DNA of 42,285 nt from a virus (lineage: Duplodnaviria > Heunggongvirae > Uroviricota > Caudoviricetes). The notes under the pieces are model-generated. The model saw only the letters and a list, made by a program, of their open reading frames with translations, did not search any database and was not told the DNA's origin. Shown here piece after piece: positions 23,466 to 33,284 of this stretch. Each line of letters begins with the position of its first letter. Positions within the stretch are counted from its first letter, which is position 1. The stretch lies in IMG/VR virus record IMGVR_UViG_2778261056_000004, positions 1 to 42,285 of that record; one strand, 5' to 3'. A program made the translations under genes and the position numbers.

Positions 23466-24017
23466 ATGATTCATACTGTTCATTTTTTATGCCCAGTTTC
23501 TCCAAGTACAGTGAGCTTGCTTCAAAACAATATTTTGTCAGCAATATCTCAAGGGGCAACCCGAATCAACCTGCACATTTCGAGTTCTGGCGGCGACGTA
23601 ACATCCGGCTTTACCGCTTATAATTTTATTAAAACCCTACCCATTCCCGTTCATTGCTTCAACATCAGCAATATCGATTCAATTGCTAATGCAATTTTTC
23701 TCGCCGGAACTAAGCGGTTTGCAAATCACGGAGCAAGATTTTTGTTGCATCCTTTCCAGTGGAACTTCGGGGGAATGCAAAGCGTCGATCACGAACGAAT
23801 GCGCGAATGGGTATCTAGCTTAGATCACGATCTTGACCGTCTCGTTTCTATCTTTAACGAGGAAACTGTTTCCGCTGGAGAACTCACTGACTGGCGTGAG
23901 TTGATCAGAACCTCTTCCATTTTGAACCCTGAAAGAGCTGCCACTCTCGGCCTTATTGAAGGTATTCAGGAGGCTAGCATCGTTGAACCCAATGCTACCT
24001 GGTGGATAAATTGTTGA
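23466..24017 (+). CDS. stand-alone ClpP/S14-like serine protease homologue, 183 aa
   Basis: Aligns by eye to the prohead protease part of 15255-17267: INLHISSSGGDV vs IKLHINSPGGDV, NIDSIANAIFLAG vs GLAASMASVIAMVG (Ser) and FLLHPFQW vs MMIHKPWG (His). It is on the opposite strand to the late operon and is AT-rich. Confidence 0.65.
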   Translation: MIHTVHFLCPVSPSTVSLLQNNILSAISQGATRINLHISSSGGDVTSGFTAYNFIKTLPIPVHCFNISNIDSIANAIFLAGTKRFANHGARFLLHPFQWNFGGMQSVDHERMREWVSSLDHDLDRLVSIFNEETVSAGELTDWRELIRTSSILNPERAATLGLIEGIQEASIVEPNATWWINC

Positions 24018-24150
24018 CATGAAGTAACCTCTTTGCCCGATTATTTTTAAGATTATAGTCGGGCTTAATCATTCCGATTGTCAAATCAATGTTTAATTAA
24101 GAATCTATTTCTTGCAATTGATATCCCACGCCTTGTGATGTGCCAAGATG

Positions 24151-25639: not shown

Positions 25640-26692
25640 TTATTCCCCTGCCAACGCCCGTATTTCCCCCAACGTCTGATTAAACCTTTCCTCTTCGAGT
25701 TCAACGCCAATAGCCTGGCGGCCAAGTTCCAGCGCGACTTTCACGGTCGAACCGGACCCCATAAAGAAATCAGCCACCACATCACCAGGCTTACTGCTGG
25801 CGTTGATGATCTGCCGCAACATGTCAGCGGGTTTTTCGCATGGGTGTTTACCTGGATAAAACTGAACGGGTTTATGTGTCCAGACGTCGGTATAAGGAAC
25901 GGATACGGAAACAGAGAAATGTCGCCGAAGTGATTTGTACTCTTCGAGCAGCTCTGAATACTTGCGATTCAACGAATGCCACATAGCCACCAGCTGGTGG
26001 TGTGGTGTTGCCAGTTCGCCGTTCTGGTTCTTTTCGTTGGCTACCTGCGTGAAAAGGGACTGAAGCTTCCGGTAGTCTGATTCATTCGGTAATTGCCACT
26101 GGCTACCGCTGAACCAGTGAGACACCATGTTCTTCTTTCCAGTCGCATCGGCTATTTGTTTTGAGGATATGCCAAGCGCTTCACGTGCATCCCGGAAATA
26201 AGAAATTAGGGGAGTCATTACATGCTGCTTCAGCTCGCTTCCCTTCTCAGCGTACCCATCGCTCTTTGGTTTATACGGCCCTTGGTAATGCTCAGCGAAA
26301 AGGATGCGCTCTGTTGCAGGGAAGTAAGAACGCAGGCTCTCTTTATTACAGCCATTCCAGCGGCCCGACGGTTTAGCCCAGATGATATGGTTCAGGACGT
26401 TGAACCGCTCACGCATCATGATCTCAATGTCTGCTGCCAGACGGTGACCGGAGAAAAGATAAAGACTGCCGGCAGGTTTAAGCACTCGCCAGAATTGTGC
26501 GAGGCACATATCAAGCCAGCGAAGATAATCCTCATCCCCTTTCCACTGATTGTCCCAGCCGTTGGGTTTCACTTTGAAGTACGGCGGATCCGTGACTATC
26601 AGGTCAATGGAGTTATCAGGGAGAGTGGCGATGTATTGCAGGCTATCAGCGTTGACTAACTCAACACTGTTTATATTTACAGTATTTTTCAT
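25640..26692 (-). CDS. orphan DNA methyltransferase (N6A/N4C, beta-class), 350 aa
   Basis: DPPY (IVTDPPYF) lies near the N-terminus and the AdoMet motif FFMGSGST near the C-terminus. No nuclease gene is adjacent. Confidence 0.8.
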   Translation of the reverse strand: MKNTVNINSVELVNADSLQYIATLPDNSIDLIVTDPPYFKVKPNGWDNQWKGDEDYLRWLDMCLAQFWRVLKPAGSLYLFSGHRLAADIEIMMRERFNVLNHIIWAKPSGRWNGCNKESLRSYFPATERILFAEHYQGPYKPKSDGYAEKGSELKQHVMTPLISYFRDAREALGISSKQIADATGKKNMVSHWFSGSQWQLPNESDYRKLQSLFTQVANEKNQNGELATPHHQLVAMWHSLNRKYSELLEEYKSLRRHFSVSVSVPYTDVWTHKPVQFYPGKHPCEKPADMLRQIINASSKPGDVVADFFMGSGSTVKVALELGRQAIGVELEEERFNQTLGEIRALAGE

Positions 26693-26829: not shown

Positions 26830-26886
26830 AAAATACCTCCGAAATGGAGGTGCGAAGGCATAAAAAAACCCCGCTTAAGCGAGGTT
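26830..26886 (-). terminator. two tandem intrinsic terminators after the HEPN-like cassette
   Basis: The minus strand has CCUCGC-UUAA-GCGGGG followed by U7, then CCUCC-AUUUC-GGAGG followed by UAUUUU. A further 9-bp hairpin without a U-run lies at 26785-26814. Confidence 0.65.
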
Positions 26887-26901: not shown

Positions 26902-27306
26902 TCAAGCAGCAGGTTCGGATGGATAAACCTGCTCATACATCTGCTGAAGGGTGTCAATAGCTTTGTTAGCCATTATCAATATAGCTTCCGCATCAGCCTT
27001 ACTTAAAGTTCTATCAAGCTCGTAATCTGCCCATTTACGTCGGGTATGCAAATGTCTCAGCATTGTTCCCATAGAAATGAGTTTCATTTTTTCAAACGGC
27101 TCATTTCCTTTTAACCATGCATCATTTGTAAGATAGTCGCGAACAGCTTGGTGTGACGACTTGTTTGGGCATTTCTCAAGCTTATCAAGCGTTTCATGAT
27201 AAACTCCATAATACGCTCGACCAATGGCGTTTCTGTAACCGATTTCATCGTTGTGAGAAATGCATTTACCAGCAAAAACAATAAAATCTTTCCCCGATAC
27301 GCTCAT
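26902..27306 (-). CDS. HEPN-like (UPF0332/COG1895-type) protein, 134 aa
   Basis: Signatures are YRNAIGRAYYGVYHETL (the sRaYYa.fH pattern) and LRHLHTRRKWADYE (the R..aDY pattern), followed by a C-terminal helix (ADAEAILIMANKAIDTL). The start overlaps the upstream stop by 1 nt. Confidence 0.55.
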   Translation of the reverse strand: MSVSGKDFIVFAGKCISHNDEIGYRNAIGRAYYGVYHETLDKLEKCPNKSSHQAVRDYLTNDAWLKGNEPFEKMKLISMGTMLRHLHTRRKWADYELDRTLSKADAEAILIMANKAIDTLQQMYEQVYPSEPAA

Positions 27307-28061
27307 CAGTAAATCCCTCTTTTTTCATCGCTTTGAAACCAGGATGTAAAAGGGCTGTTCCGATAACTATCATCTGAGAGCAAAACCAACAGTTCCATGT
27401 TCATTTCAGCTAAAACCTGCGGATCAGCAGTTTGGGCTCTAACGATGAATGCATTGTCATCATCTCCACCAAGATAATAGCTAACACTTGAACAGTTAAT
27501 ACCGCGCTTGTTCGCAATCTCTTCAGCTTGATCGCAAAGGGCTTCTAGTTCTCGAGAAGAAAGACGGGTAGCGTTTTTGAAATCAACAATCTGTTCAGCC
27601 ATATAATTTCCCTGATTGATTATATCCTCTCGCTCTTGGCCATCATAAAGAGCAGCCATTTTGAGGGAGAACTTTTTAACCAACTTGTCGTTGCCGATAC
27701 AAAATGCAGCGTTTCTTGCTACAAGCCTCAGTTCATGTGAAGGGAAAAGCTCAACTATTCTAAACAACTCAACGCGATGCTCATAGTTATGAGCCGAACG
27801 AGAAAGATACGCCAAGTAGTTTTGTGCGATCGTTGGACTCCCAGAGCTCATCGCGTCTTTGAATAAACGTACTGCATCAGAGTGACGCCCGAGAGTTCCA
27901 TTAAGCCATGCATACGCATGTGCGCGCTCACTTATTGGAAGTTTAGCAATGTCGCGCTCAATTTCCGCAATAGTGTCTGTATCCGGGACTTCTCCCTTCT
28001 GGAAGTAATCGAGGATTGTTGCAAGCAGTTCTTGTTCTTTTGACTCAGGCTGTCCTGACAT
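27306..28061 (-). CDS. hypothetical 251-aa protein, helical repeat-like N-terminal half, unknown C-terminal domain
   Basis: ATG at 28061. AT-rich codon usage. Translationally coupled to the HEPN-like gene. I see no nucleotidyltransferase or other catalytic motif. Confidence 0.5.
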   Translation of the reverse strand: MSGQPESKEQELLATILDYFQKGEVPDTDTIAEIERDIAKLPISERAHAYAWLNGTLGRHSDAVRLFKDAMSSGSPTIAQNYLAYLSRSAHNYEHRVELFRIVELFPSHELRLVARNAAFCIGNDKLVKKFSLKMAALYDGQEREDIINQGNYMAEQIVDFKNATRLSSRELEALCDQAEEIANKRGINCSSVSYYLGGDDDNAFIVRAQTADPQVLAEMNMELLVLLSDDSYRNSPFTSWFQSDEKRGIY

Positions 28062-28212
28062 AATTTTCCCGAAGAAAACCAAATTCTGTATGTTTTCAAT
28101 AGCTTCACTGGATAGATTTTTATATTGCTGTCATCAGTATTGAAGCTTTTACGGGATTGTACAGGACCATCAGCGTTCTACTTGTGCATAAGAATTTAAT
28201 AAACCTACAGAC

Positions 28213-28286
28213 TTATCCACAGAAAAAAGAGTTATCAACAAAAAAAGTTATTCACAACTTAACTAATAGCAAAATATTGTTGATAA
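28213..28286. promoter_or_regulatory. cluster of four DnaA-box 9-mers
   Basis: Plus strand: TTATCCACA (28213-28221, perfect consensus), TTATCAACA (28232-28240) and TTATTCACA (28248-28256). Minus strand: TTATCAACA (28278-28286). All lie in the AT-rich spacer upstream of the cassette. Confidence 0.5.
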
Positions 28287-28413
28287 GCTGTGCGTAATTA
28301 TCATATCCATCAAACTTACGCACATTAGAGCCTTGTGTTGCCTATCCATCGTTTTTTCCTATCAAAACGAAACGACATGCTTTTCTGCGATTAAAAAAGT
28401 ATTCCGCAAAATT

Positions 28414-28438
28414 AAAAAACCCGCTCACTGGCGGGTTT
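28414..28438 (-). terminator. tR'-like intrinsic terminator downstream of the late promoter
   Basis: The minus strand reads CCCGC-CAGUGA-GCGGG followed by U6, roughly 40 nt downstream of the candidate PR' start site. Confidence 0.7.
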
Positions 28439-28471
28439 ATATACTGTTGGCAACATATCAAATTAGCTTCA

Positions 28472-28500
28472 AATATCGCTTATTTTGTTGCATTTTGCAA
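28472..28500 (-). promoter_or_regulatory. candidate late promoter PR'
   Basis: TTGCAA-17 nt-GATATT on the minus strand, directly downstream of Q and upstream of the terminator. Confidence 0.4.
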
Positions 28501-28530
28501 GCCTGATTGAAGACGTTAGTGAAATTTACT

Positions 28531-29223
28531 TCACATTTCTACCACTTTCACTTCTTCATACTCTTCGTACCGCGCCAGGCTTTCACGTAACGCCAGGCTG
28601 TCCATTTCCACGAAAGCTGCTTTAAATGCTGCCCAGTGAGCAGCGTATACCCTGAGCCAGGTTGAACGCTCCACGCTCACCATGCGGGCCAGTGCCGCCC
28701 CCGCATATTCCTGGTACGTATCGTTATTGCGTGATGCTGCAACTTCCTGGGCCGCGAGCCAGACAAGCCCCACTAATTTTTTTGTGACTCTGTCCTGGAG
28801 CTTCTTACGGCCCTGCTGATGCTGAAACTGTGCCCAAACGTACTGGCACATCAACGTCTGGTACCGGAAAGACAGATCATATCCATAGCAATACCTGACC
28901 CACGCCTGCAGATGCTCTCCAAGGCCATTTACCGAGCGGCGCCACGCAGAACTCGCAAACTCGGCATCCTTCATAGGGGGTAATGGGCGTCGACGGCTTC
29001 TTGTCTCCAGAACATAAAGCGGAGTGGCCAGAGTTTTTACAACCTTCGATCCACAACCTTCCCCACCCTCCATGACGATTTCAGGATGGTGCCGAGGGTA
29101 TTTATTCTTATCTGCTGGTGGATGCTCACTGAACGCCTGCAGCTGTCCTTTTGTCGATCCTGATAAATCCGCCAGCGCGCGGCGCAGTTCAATCCGCGTA
29201 TATTCCAGTTCTTGTAAATTCAT
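28531..29223 (-). CDS. late antiterminator Q (Phage_antitermQ-type), about 230 aa
   Basis: Positioned directly before the PR'/tR' pair. The N-terminal ELRRALADLSGSTKGQL and the overall pattern recall the Q family found in enterobacterial prophages. The start is uncertain (ATG 29223 or TTG 29244). Confidence 0.65.
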   Translation of the reverse strand: MNLQELEYTRIELRRALADLSGSTKGQLQAFSEHPPADKNKYPRHHPEIVMEGGEGCGSKVVKTLATPLYVLETRSRRRPLPPMKDAEFASSAWRRSVNGLGEHLQAWVRYCYGYDLSFRYQTLMCQYVWAQFQHQQGRKKLQDRVTKKLVGLVWLAAQEVAASRNNDTYQEYAGAALARMVSVERSTWLRVYAAHWAAFKAAFVEMDSLALRESLARYEEYEEVKVVEM

Positions 29224-29244
29224 TATGCTCAGCGCTCCATACAA

Positions 29245-31098: not shown

Positions 31099-32433
31099 TC
31101 ACGCATTGACGGCCCCCAGCATGCTGTTGAAGAGACCACCAGCGGTCGTGATAATTTCACTCGTCGGCATACGTTCGAGCCACAGCTGGTTGATATTGGC
31201 TTTCAGCTTGTTCTGTTGTGAAACAGGTAGAGCGTCAGCCCCTTCAATCTGGTTAAACACCAGGCCAACCTCAAGAGGCCAAACGCGCGATTCGTTTAAC
31301 GCCTTGTCCTTTGATTCCTGCGTCTCACGGACATGGGCGCGGATCCCCCGAATATTTGACCATTTGGCTTTATCCAGGCTTTCCATGGTCGCGATGAATT
31401 CACTGTGGTTAATGCCGTATTCTTTCGCAGACTCAACGGCAACCGTGCGTAACCGCTCTGACATGTCTTGTTTCACGTCATCGCTATCAAAGGGCAATGT
31501 TTCCAGCCATGCATTAACACCCACCAGGATGCTCTCGCTGATCAGCTTTTTCGCTCTGTCGATCGTCAGCGGTGAAACATTGGTAAATTCAGGGTTCTCC
31601 AAAGAGTCGGCAGCCCAGGTATGACCAAACTTTGACTCGCTGAAGGTGTACTCATCTTTCTCGCCGAACGCCGCGACAACACAGGCCCAAGCCTCTACAC
31701 CACTGGTATCCAGAATGGCTTTTTGGGTTAATGGCAGTTCTGCCTCTGATTTCTCCGGCACTACCTCAGCGTCCAGCTCCGGCGCCGCATCAGTTTGCTT
31801 TCTTCCCACTGCAAACTGGGCCAGCGACATCGAAGCACGGCCTTTGGCCTCCAGGTCGGTGCGGTTGATGTAACTGAAACGTTCACCCCGCCATGTTTTG
31901 TCGAAGACCACGATAGCGCCAGCAAAAAATGCGCTGGTGGGTTGCTGCTTTTCGTCTTTCGGCACGAACCATGTAGGAAGATCGAAACCAATTCGGCCAC
32001 GGATGAATGTGACGTGATCTGCTTCTTCCGGCCACCACGTCTCACTCGTCGCAGACTTAATGAGAAAAACGTACCGACCACCCTTTTCTCGCATTGCCAT
32101 AGCGTGGTTAATGATGTGGGTCATTCCGGTAACGGCCTGCTTGTCGTGGTACTGAGAGCGGCTGTAAGGCGGGTTGCCAAACCCGGCACCACCGAGCTCT
32201 GCCAGACGCTCTGACCAATCCTGCGTCAGGGCATTATCTTCAGCCGTGTACCATGCTGGGCACTTCGCGTTACTGTCGTCGGCAAAAAGGTCCAACACCA
32301 GAGGGCCGAACATCGCATTGATACCCCAAAACAACAGATCCGGAGTACGCCATTGATCGCCGACCTCTTTCAACTCGTGGGCTGGTCTTGAACGCAGTTC
32401 AGCCAACGCCCGGCAGTATTTATTTTCATTCAT
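31099..32433 (-). CDS. phage Dam-type N6-adenine DNA methyltransferase fused to a ~230-aa C-terminal region of unknown function
   Basis: The N-terminal part has WRTPDLLF, LDLFA and GNPPYS. Residues from about 215 to 444 carry no motif I recognise. ATGA overlap with the O-like gene. Confidence 0.7.
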   Translation of the reverse strand: MNENKYCRALAELRSRPAHELKEVGDQWRTPDLLFWGINAMFGPLVLDLFADDSNAKCPAWYTAEDNALTQDWSERLAELGGAGFGNPPYSRSQYHDKQAVTGMTHIINHAMAMREKGGRYVFLIKSATSETWWPEEADHVTFIRGRIGFDLPTWFVPKDEKQQPTSAFFAGAIVVFDKTWRGERFSYINRTDLEAKGRASMSLAQFAVGRKQTDAAPELDAEVVPEKSEAELPLTQKAILDTSGVEAWACVVAAFGEKDEYTFSESKFGHTWAADSLENPEFTNVSPLTIDRAKKLISESILVGVNAWLETLPFDSDDVKQDMSERLRTVAVESAKEYGINHSEFIATMESLDKAKWSNIRGIRAHVRETQESKDKALNESRVWPLEVGLVFNQIEGADALPVSQQNKLKANINQLWLERMPTSEIITTAGGLFNSMLGAVNA

Positions 32434-33284
32434 CCTCTGAACCCCTCTGGAATCTTGGTATCAACCGGACCGAACTTCATCGGATCGTGTTTCTTTTCAC
32501 CCCAGCTTTCACGCGGTGGACGCCCCTTCTTGTCCCAACGGATCCCGCTTTGCAGATAACCCTCAAACTTTTTCGGGCCAAATAGCGTTTCAGGGCGCAT
32601 GTACTGGTACTGCACGTCATTGCCGTTCCAGTGCTCATGCTTAAGGTCAATCACCAGCTGTAACTCGCCAACGGTGTAACCTTCACGCAAACGAGCACGG
32701 ATGTTTTCCAGAGAAGTTTTTGATTTTTGGTATCGTGAGCCGCTAACCAGGTTCAGATGATTCAGAACCAGGATGGCGTTATCGGTGATCGTCACTTCAA
32801 GGTCTGGTTGCTGCGCAACCGGACAAGAAGGTTTTTTAACTGATGGATCAGTAGTTGTATTTACTGACGGATCCCCCCCAGATTCTGACGGGTGAAAACT
32901 GCCTTTCTCATCGTTTTTTGATGCCTCAGATTTTGACGCGTCGGTTTTTGAGGCATCAGATTTTGATGCGTCAGAATCTGACAGGTGAGAAAAGGCAGCA
33001 GCCTGCAATTTCGCAACATTGAGCTGGTAAACGTTCGATGCATTTCGGTTGCCTTTACGGCGCTGCTGGCGGGTTAACCAACCATCTTTTTCCAGCTGAG
33101 ATATGGCTGTGCGAACCGTGCTCTCACCAGCACCAATCTGGCGCGCGATGGTAGCGATGGAAGGCCAGCTAACCCCTTCATCACTGCTGAAGTCTGCCAG
33201 ACGCGCCATGATGGCAACGCTGGATAGCTTCATGCCAGAAGCGGCACAAGCATCCCAAACGTAACCCGTTAATTTAGTGCTCAT
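32430..33284 (-). CDS. replication initiator (O-like): N-terminal winged HTH, Ser/Asp repeat linker, C-terminal phage replication domain
   Basis: WPSIATIARQIGAGESTVRTAISQLEKDGWL forms a wHTH. The C-terminal part (VLNHLN...RYQ...NIRARL.EGYT..EL..VI..K...W) resembles the conserved phage replication-protein C-terminal domain. Confidence 0.65.
   Translation of the reverse strand: MSTKLTGYVWDACAASGMKLSSVAIMARLADFSSDEGVSWPSIATIARQIGAGESTVRTAISQLEKDGWLTRQQRRKGNRNASNVYQLNVAKLQAAAFSHLSDSDASKSDASKTDASKSEASKNDEKGSFHPSESGGDPSVNTTTDPSVKKPSCPVAQQPDLEVTITDNAILVLNHLNLVSGSRYQKSKTSLENIRARLREGYTVGELQLVIDLKHEHWNGNDVQYQYMRPETLFGPKKFEGYLQSGIRWDKKGRPPRESWGEKKHDPMKFGPVDTKIPEGFRG
32911..32985. repeat. five tandem 15-bp units inside the O-like gene (candidate ori iterons)
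   Basis: The units are tcgttttttgatgcc, tcagattttgacgcg, tcggtttttgaggca, tcagattttgatgcg and tcagaatctgacagg. The array is flanked by an inverted repeat, ctgcctttctca (32899-32910) and tgagaaaaggcag (32986-32998). Confidence 0.6.

Follow-up and report, generated by a model that had tools for sequence, protein, structure and literature searches.

In a 42,285-nt stretch of DNA (IMG/VR virus record IMGVR_UViG_2778261056_000004, positions 1 to 42,285; hereafter the window), which is a lambdoid prophage with its late genes on the minus strand, we find a dense array of sites resembling the 9-mer boxes of the host protein DnaA. The array occupies positions 28183-28324, in the spacer between a late terminator of the tR' type and a two-gene cassette encoding a TPR-like protein (open reading frame A, ORF-A) and a HEPN-family protein (ORF-B). 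The box cluster far exceeds chance, and its conservation supports the view that the boxes are a selected cis element, one that goes with the cassette and not with the phage origin. Because the array lies directly upstream of the cassette's private promoter, DnaA probably influences how the cassette is expressed. Judging from sequence, we put it at slightly better than an even chance that the array is the regulatory region of a DnaA-responsive promoter resembling that of nrdAB.

An earlier note on this DNA had claimed four boxes in 28213-28286, three of them direct repeats spaced by 19 and 16 bp from start to start and one inverted. All four 9-mers are found at these positions and on these strands with the spacings as claimed, and a distance of 152-225 bp separates them from the cassette's ATG at 28061, which lies downstream. 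In minus-strand direction, the cluster comes after the tR' hairpin (28438..28417), which follows the antiterminator gene Q. In what follows, match counts relate to the 9-mer, the strict consensus TTWTNCACA was scored separately, and negative coordinates are distances from a transcription start that we place near 28149, as judged from a conserved -10 hexamer. Box 1 (TTATCCACA, 28213-28221, plus strand, about -72 to -64) is a perfect match. Box 2 (TTATCAACA, 28232-28240, plus strand, about -91 to -83) has one mismatch, at C6, and box 3 (TTATTCACA, 28248-28256, plus strand, about -107 to -99) fits TTWTNCACA and is specific to one lineage. Box 4 (28278-28286, minus strand) is an inverted copy of TTATCAACA. 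Three further sites had been overlooked: box 5 (TTATGCACA, 28183-28191, minus strand, one mismatch), box 6 (TTACGCACA, 28289-28297, minus strand, two mismatches) and box 7 (again TTACGCACA, 28316-28324, plus strand, about -175 to -167, 7/9 matches). Including weak partner sites, the cluster thereby grows to about nine sites in 142 bp.

Across the whole window, 19 boxes with at most one mismatch are present, compared to 7.1 +/- 2.7 expected, and five of these fall within 104 bp. The spacer holds five boxes of this quality where 0.10 are expected, a number that none of 5000 dinucleotide-preserving shuffles reached, and seven with at least 7/9 matches where 1.3 are expected (0 of 3000 shuffles). 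When the whole window was shuffled, there were never more than two boxes inside 110 bp.

In Escherichia coli, DnaA is bound in vivo almost exclusively at double boxes, that is tandem 9-mers 2-3 bp apart, and one extra base pair in a double box abolishes binding (Stringer, Fitzgerald and Wade 2024, PMC11317965). For this reason, we scored tandem pairs, using a position weight matrix (PWM) derived from the 26 boxes in Table 1 of that study, all of them bound in vivo; on this matrix, the bound sites score 14.8-27.5 bits. Three pairs in the cluster are tandem with a gap of 2-3 bp. The distal pair, TTACGCACA-gc-TTATCAACA, joins boxes 6 and 4 across 2 bp (28278-28297, minus strand, about -148 to -129). 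With 15/18 matches and 22.8 bits it is the top double box of the window, and its score is unmatched in 176 kb of background. The middle pair, AAACCTACA-gac-TTATCCACA, places a weak partner (1') 3 bp from box 1 (28201-28221, plus strand, about -72 to -52; 13.4 bits). The proximal pair, TTATTAAAT-tc-TTATGCACA, consists of a weak AT-rich partner (5') and box 5 with a 2-bp gap (28183-28202, minus strand, about -53 to -34; 13.8 bits) and overlaps the UP-element and -35 zone. Scored singly, box 2 reaches 12.4 bits and box 7 10.0-12.8 bits. Two isolated tandem pairs elsewhere in the window, ATGTCAACA-at-TTATCCACC (24001-24020, minus strand) and TGACCCACA-tca-TTAACCACG (32103-32123, minus strand), score about 13.5 bits, a chance level that is reached a few times per 100 kb.

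The architecture of these pairs is that of the double boxes bound in vivo at purH, polA, nrdD, datA, mioC and rne, which share the tandem 2-3-bp build and typically combine a strong with a degenerate 9-mer (PMC11317965). The 9-mer TTACGCACA, found here as boxes 6 and 7, is identical to the required upstream box of the bound purH site (PMC11317965), and box 1 shares the context 'gag/gac-TTATCCACA-g' with oriC, datA and purH. The array differs from the sites of the E. coli DnaA regulon in that those usually comprise one pair whose binding was measured, whereas here three pairs and three single boxes are present and binding is predicted.

To follow the sites through evolution, we aligned the spacer from seven distinct lineages whose ORF-A is at least 73% identical (the window, L002, L014, L015, L020, L026 and L027). 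At four-fold degenerate sites of ORF-A, identity is about 0.40 between the E. coli-type lineage and the others and 0.49 on average over all pairs; neutral sites are therefore nearly saturated. Box 5 is invariant in 7/7 lineages. Box 1 has a pairwise identity of 0.92 and occurs as TTATCCACA, TTATACACA or TTACCCACA; box 2 (0.90) is identical in six of the seven and reads TTACACACA in L014; box 7 is kept as TTAYNCACA throughout, taking the form TTATGCACA in L014. The first two forms of box 1 are the R1/R4 and R2 forms of oriC. Box 4 varies when viewed alone, yet the pair of boxes 6 and 4 scores 16.0-22.8 bits in all seven lineages, within the range of bound sites. The proximal pair scores 13.8-17.8 bits across lineages, and the middle pair rises to 19.6 bits in L002 (AAATCCACA-gag-TTATCCACA) and 17.5 bits in L015 and is lost in L014 (8.6 bits). 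Only the E. coli-type lineage, represented by the window, L026 and L027, has box 3, which is degenerate or absent in L002, L014, L015 and L020. Thus, three of the four boxes first noted are conserved, namely box 1, box 2 and, as a member of the distal pair, box 4; box 3 is not.

The pattern of substitutions follows the logic of a DnaA box. Counted over the six conserved boxes, extra residue types number seven at position 5, five at position 4 and three at position 6. Positions 2 and 7-9 are constant, and positions 1 and 3 each show changes in one box only. The most variable position is the N of TTWTNCACA. The sequence that runs from box 2 through box 1 to box 5 is one unbroken conserved block, and the alignment of the seven lineages contains no insertion or deletion between 28246 and 28086, so that the spacing is fixed. 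The inverted partners do not co-vary: neither between boxes 6 and 7 nor between boxes 1 and 5 is a change in one box compensated in the other. This speaks against a strict dyad operator, and hairpins of these two pairs, in RNA or in DNA, were rejected for the same reason. A 46-amino-acid plus-strand ORF that runs over the boxes is disrupted by insertions and deletions in homologues, which removes a coding role, and a plus-strand promoter candidate (TTCACA-16-AATATT) was discarded because it relies on box 3, which is not conserved.

Downstream of the array lies the hexamer TACAAT (28161..28156, minus strand), the putative -10 element of the cassette's own promoter, which is invariant in 7/7 lineages and located 94-96 nt from the ATG. 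No match to a -35 element occurs 16-18 bp upstream of it; in this close clade CAAGTA or unrelated sequence takes that place, and the TG of an extended -10 is shifted by one base. Box 5 ends 21 bp from TACAAT, in place of the -35. The significance of this arrangement emerges from a comparison with about 24 more distant cassettes (ORF-A 43-62% identical), of which we scanned 300-400 nt upstream. Boxes are absent there, except for a single box at one locus, and the best tandem pairs reach only 10-13/18 matches. Instead, 16 of the 24 distant loci listed carry GTGACA-N16-TGnTA(C/G)AAT, a canonical -35 with an extended -10. This promoter precedes the ATG by 69-114 nt, and by 69-89 nt at every locus except one. 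A close variant of the -10 is present at most of the remaining loci, and two (L019 and L052) lack such a promoter. A T-rich run in front of GTGACA is part of the conserved pattern, (T-rich)-GTGACA-N16-TGnTA(G/C)AAT, seen 60-140 nt upstream of the ORF-A homologue in L006, L007, L011, L012, L018 and L029-L051. The conserved canonical promoter of the distant cassettes indicates that the cassette is normally an autonomous and probably constitutively expressed moron. TACAAT is positionally equivalent to the TA(C/G)AAT of these promoters. The close clade has thus retained the -10 and lost the -35, and the array is present in its stead.

This comparison also delimits the claim that the 9-mers are conserved wherever the cassette occurs: it holds for all lineages with ORF-A at least 73% identical and fails for the roughly 24 more distant ones. 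Two further invariant blocks accompany the array in the close clade. Coming from the variable tR' region, TTTGATAGGAAAAAACGATG (28347..28366, minus strand, pairwise identity 0.94-1.00) is the first block of the cassette module to be conserved. It resembles a Shine-Dalgarno sequence followed by ATG; the ORF it opens is 3-33 amino acids long and not conserved between lineages. The block may be a translated leader, a protein site or a module boundary. A coding role for the short ORF that follows the invariant AGGAAAAAACGATG was rejected on the same grounds (3-33 amino acids, not conserved). In the 5' untranslated region, the invariant block AAGCTTCAATACT (28136..28148, minus strand) is predicted to pair with GAAGCT (28107..28102); the consensus fold of the two is weak (-3.9 kcal/mol) and shows no covariation.

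Next to its fixed position, the array is marked by its exclusive linkage to the cassette. The pattern of boxes 2, 1 and 5 is found in 7 contigs of IMG/VR, all of which also carry ORF-A, and was not found in 185,579 species-representative genomes. Searches of E. coli genomes, plasmids and phage records did not show the array with any other cargo; plasmids contain no match to the spacer, and phage records match its terminator end only. Cassette and array occur together in 12 of 5426 complete E. coli genomes, and a protein-based scan of GTDB representatives returned no relative. The ORF-A family (PHROG 17809) is small, with 13 clusters at 90% identity. A homologue of ORF-B always follows ORF-A as the next gene, and the pair usually sits between a late antiterminator with its terminator and the lysis genes. 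The antiterminators ahead of it belong to three unrelated families (PF06323, PF03589 and PF06530), and on some contigs the cassette lies beside tail-fibre genes instead. In E. coli genomes, the homology breakpoint falls at 28435-28572 and varies with the type of Q; therefore, the spacer moves together with the cassette. In E. coli ECCWS199 (L001 7691-7765), a tRNA-Thr gene is found between a different antiterminator and the same cassette and spacer. Homology to this strain ends inside the terminator hairpin (about 28435), suggesting that the terminator is a recombination joint. At the loci beside tail-fibre genes and not behind Q (L007-L011), the upstream region starts with a tRNA-like fragment, CCTCTTAGTTAAATGGATATGA, about 200-260 nt upstream, and contains direct repeats ATGTAC(A/C) about 12-13 bp apart. 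Two features of the array point to a function at the promoter: it accompanies the cassette instead of the replication or Q modules, and its distance to the -10 is constant.

The closest parallel is the nrdAB promoter. DnaA at its high-affinity boxes activates this promoter, whereas high levels of ATP-DnaA repress it, so that its output depends on the level and the bound nucleotide of DnaA (PMC8203912). At the nrdA promoter of MG1655, we find the pair TTATCCACA-aag-TTATGCACT (about -55 to -35, 23.4 bits) just upstream of TTGCAA-17-TATCTT. This pair and the proximal pair of the array share the strand (non-template) and occupy near-identical positions by the -35 zone, and in both cases further boxes are present, which at nrdAB allow control by dose and nucleotide. 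The differences are equally clear. The nrdA promoter combines the -35 element TTGCAA with a strong pair, whereas the cassette promoter has no -35 and a weak proximal pair (13.8 bits); its strong pair is located about 100 bp further upstream within a longer mixed-orientation array of about nine sites; and nrdAB is a replication-related host gene, whereas the cassette belongs to a mobile prophage. The phage lambda promoter pR offers a second precedent for host DnaA acting as a transcription factor of a lambdoid phage (PMC8203912). There, weak boxes near pR activate transcription for the lambda origin, whereas the array lies in the late region, next to cargo unrelated to replication.

These parallels suggest how the promoter could work. 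Host DnaA would occupy the stronger sites, namely the distal pair (28278-28297), box 1 and boxes 2, 5 and 7, and would then recruit protomers onto the weak partner sites 2-3 bp away. Because the proximal pair (about -53 to -34) abuts a -10 that has no -35, DnaA bound there would set the activity of the promoter, as at nrdAB. The missing -35 and the analogy to nrdA suggest a positive role for the proximal pair, at which DnaA could aid RNA polymerase. Conversely, the array's length of roughly 140 bp suggests repression, since a longer oligomer of ATP-DnaA along it could exclude RNA polymerase. In a lysogen, expression of the cassette would then track the amount or the nucleotide state of free DnaA. 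The coupling of cassette transcription to DnaA that the earlier note had put forward is thus consistent with the DnaA-like sites, their 2-3-bp pairing, their conservation and the array's position against the conserved -10, and it stands as a prediction from sequence only; the specific dependence on the ATP-bound form that was proposed with it is pure inference. The alternative raised in the same note, titration of DnaA, is weakly disfavored because the array tracks the cassette and not the replication module.

Several observations weigh against a DnaA-responsive promoter. The middle and proximal pairs, at 13.4 and 13.8 bits, fall below the weakest bound site (rpoH, 14.8 bits), and scores of 13.4-13.8 bits arise about 3-4 times per 100 kb of background. 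The strongest pair lies about 130-150 bp upstream of the putative start, far for a direct contact with RNA polymerase. The promoter itself is deduced from the conserved -10 alone, and a consensus promoter scan of the cassette strand returned none. Even perfect boxes are frequently unoccupied, with 13 of 32 bound in vivo in E. coli K-12 (PMC11317965). Cassettes with ORF-A at most 62% identical function with no boxes at all. Finally, TTWTNCACA, the high-affinity DnaA-box consensus (Roth and Messer, as cited in PMC12371093), is satisfied by only three of the 9-mers: boxes 1, 3 and 5 match it exactly, and boxes 2, 4, 6 and 7 each miss one position. The recurrent variant TTATCAACA breaks C6 and TTACGCACA breaks T4, both of which are fixed even in the broader consensus HHMTHCWVH given in the same text (PMC12371093).

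Since these two variants depart from positions fixed in functional boxes, the repeats could be operators of another protein that recognizes TTA-N3-ACA, be it a host protein, another prophage protein or an autoregulating product of the cassette, with the resemblance to DnaA boxes being coincidental. We regard this as unlikely, if worth serious attention. The conserved core is indeed TTA...ACA with variable positions 4-6, looser than the strict DnaA consensus; boxes 1 and 5 are arranged as inverted sites 21 bp apart, as are boxes 6 and 7 in inverted orientation; and the distant homologues combine divergent proteins with the absence of boxes, as co-evolution of a protein and its operators predicts. 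Toxin-antitoxin-like modules also commonly autoregulate. On the other hand, the inverted partners do not co-vary, so that no dyad constraint is apparent, and the 2-3-bp tandem pairing, the perfect box of the R1/R4 type, the R2-type variant and the purH-like TTACGCACA all match DnaA sites bound in vivo. A cassette protein was rejected as the binder: ORF-A is modeled as a TPR array with no helix-turn-helix, and ORF-B is a HEPN protein. The replication initiator of the phage was likewise rejected, its iterons (TCRGWTTTTGAYGCR) being unrelated to the boxes.

Alternatively, DnaA may bind the array for a purpose other than promoter control, either as a sink or modulator of its nucleotide state after induction, similar to datA or DARS, or as a roadblock against read-through from the late promoter. 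The number of sites, about nine in 142 bp, is comparable to datA or to half of oriC, the array is positioned between tR' and the cassette, and DnaA bound in transcribed DNA can block elongation (work cited in PMC11317965). A phage precedent exists in T5-like phages, whose eight paired DnaA boxes far from the origins have been proposed to serve a non-replicative role (bioRxiv 10.1101/866236). Nevertheless, we judge this possibility improbable. DARS1, DARS2 and datA are, like the array, mixed-orientation clusters of DnaA boxes outside the origin; they are chromosomal cell-cycle elements, however, and the array is promoter-proximal on a mobile cassette. In the three-box core of DARS, boxes I and II face in opposite directions with 5 bp between them, and box III completes the set (PMC6868365). 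This geometry is absent here: a search for a DARS-like core gave opposed boxes 21 bp (boxes 5 and 1, boxes 3 and 4) or 18 bp (boxes 6 and 7) apart and weak partners 1' and 5' that overlap by 2 bp, and the candidate was dropped. Both datA and DARS2 need IHF sites, and a datA- or oriC-type cluster would include one among its boxes; the IHF consensus WATCAANNNNTTR has no match anywhere in the window, where a degenerate IHF site is possible. GATC is missing between 27828 and 28875, giving no link to GATC and SeqA. Moreover, a single prophage copy would add little to the hundreds of boxes on the chromosome (PMC12371093). The T5-like array, too, differs in its setting. It comprises about eight conserved DnaA boxes and variants, among them TTATCAACA and TTATGCACA, in pairs 3 bp apart and away from the origin, and it is embedded in inverted repeats of the large untranslated first-step-transfer region, where it was proposed without proof to arrest DNA injection (bioRxiv 10.1101/866236). 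The cassette array, in contrast, belongs to a temperate prophage, where it directly precedes the -10 of a gene cassette.

Two more explanations dispense with a specific regulatory role for DnaA, and both are excluded to a good approximation. That the 9-mers are by-products of AT-rich, curved promoter-upstream DNA (UP element and A-tracts) bound by no specific protein seems very improbable to us. The region has a GC content of 33% and contains phased A/T runs, and the weak partner of box 5, TTATTAAAT, is found where an UP element would lie. However, shuffles of this same region yield 0.10 boxes against the five observed, the conserved positions are the G/C-containing CACA ends more than A/T content as such, and the AT-rich upstream regions of the distant homologues are free of boxes. 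To the idea that the cluster is a second, DnaA-dependent replication origin we assign next to no weight, even though several DnaA boxes within AT-rich DNA would superficially fit one. The array has no 13-mer-type unwinding element, no GATC cluster and no link to the replication module; rather, it moves with a cargo cassette among phages with different replication modules. The replication gene (32430..33284, with HTH_36 and Phg_2220_C domains) contains four to five iterons of 15 bp (TCRGWTTTTGAYGCR, 32911-32985) that likely mark the phage origin, a location that bears out the earlier placement of the origin elsewhere, at about 32.9 kb.

The cassette served by the putative DnaA-responsive promoter is a prophage cargo unit, or moron, composed of promoter, ORF-A, ORF-B and terminator between tR' and the lysis genes. 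It combines a conserved -10, a 3' hairpin, the slot between Q/tR' and the lysis genes and a mosaic distribution. Upstream, the Q antiterminator gene (28531..29244, minus strand; PF06323, E = 3e-40) is followed by a short leader and, according to a terminator scan, by the intrinsic tR'-type terminator 3' of Q on the minus strand; this leader and terminator region matches the late promoter and terminator regions of other lambdoid phages. A 334-bp spacer (28083-28416, 33% GC) then leads to the cassette. ORF-A (251 amino acids, from the ATG at 28061 to 27306, minus strand) is modeled as a TPR-like helical array with a small alpha/beta C-terminal domain. The structural neighbors of the predicted structure are TPR proteins in every case, and neither a helix-turn-helix nor any DNA-binding fold was detected in the model. 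ORF-B (134 amino acids, 27306..26902, minus strand) overlaps ORF-A and belongs to the HEPN family, in agreement with the label the cassette had been given: its family profile matches the HEPN chains 9xbd and 9xbc in the PDB (E = 3e-5 and 1e-4), and 8 of 24 homologues match PF05168, although a Pfam search with ORF-B as the sole query gave no match. A terminator-like hairpin (26886..26867, minus strand), identified in the terminator scan, ends the transcription unit, and genes for an N6/N4 methyltransferase, a holin and an endolysin follow.

The surrounding region offers a few further observations. The N6/N4 methyltransferase (25640-26692, minus strand) has an internal HTH_3-like stretch; its gene lies directly 3' of the cassette in the window, L002 and L014 and is absent in L006 and L015. 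The prophage encodes a second DNA methyltransferase (31099-32433, minus strand), in which a Dam-type domain is fused to a C-terminal extension of about 240 amino acids. A scan of the window for tRNA and tmRNA genes was negative, and an Rfam scan of 27900-28700 gave sub-threshold matches only, centered on the tR' hairpin. On a distant cassette-bearing contig (L019 3201-3482), an Acb2/Tad1-hairpin protein of the anti-CBASS/anti-Thoeris sponge family is encoded just past the lysis genes. The ORF-A/ORF-B module (26902-28061; loci L002-L052) fits no PADLOC model, and ORF-A has no named Pfam family, making the module a candidate for an undescribed defense or toxin-type system.

If the module is toxin-like, the array may have a more specific purpose. 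In this scenario, the TPR/HEPN pair would be a candidate abortive-infection or addiction module wired to DnaA as a guarded sensor of the state of the cell or of infection. The cassette promoter would be kept in one state by free DnaA and would flip once free DnaA collapsed or was titrated. Degradation of host DNA, the runaway replication of a superinfecting phage that bears boxes, or an arrest of replication initiation could each bring about such a collapse. We offer this as a speculative extension with a small chance of being right.

DnaA-box-regulated promoters are already known; the prophage cargo context is what is unusual, not described before and potentially interesting. In the literature on DnaA boxes with prophage antitermination, morons, anti-phage defense or toxin-antitoxin systems, we found no description of such an element or locus, and the only conserved non-origin array of DnaA boxes in phages that we found described is the T5-like one, whose role is hypothetical. 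In E. coli, the DnaA regulon as defined by experiment is small. A DnaA-responsive cassette promoter would extend DnaA control to mobile accessory genes, possibly genes of defense or toxins, and would mean that mobile elements can swap a constitutive promoter for one that reads the replication-initiation status of the host. With its graded boxes and three tandem pairs in about 140 bp, the array is a compact natural test case for activation and repression by DnaA oligomers, the mechanism of which is poorly understood. The uncharacterized TPR and HEPN pair itself recurs in the cargo slot between Q and the lysis genes of many enterobacterial prophages.

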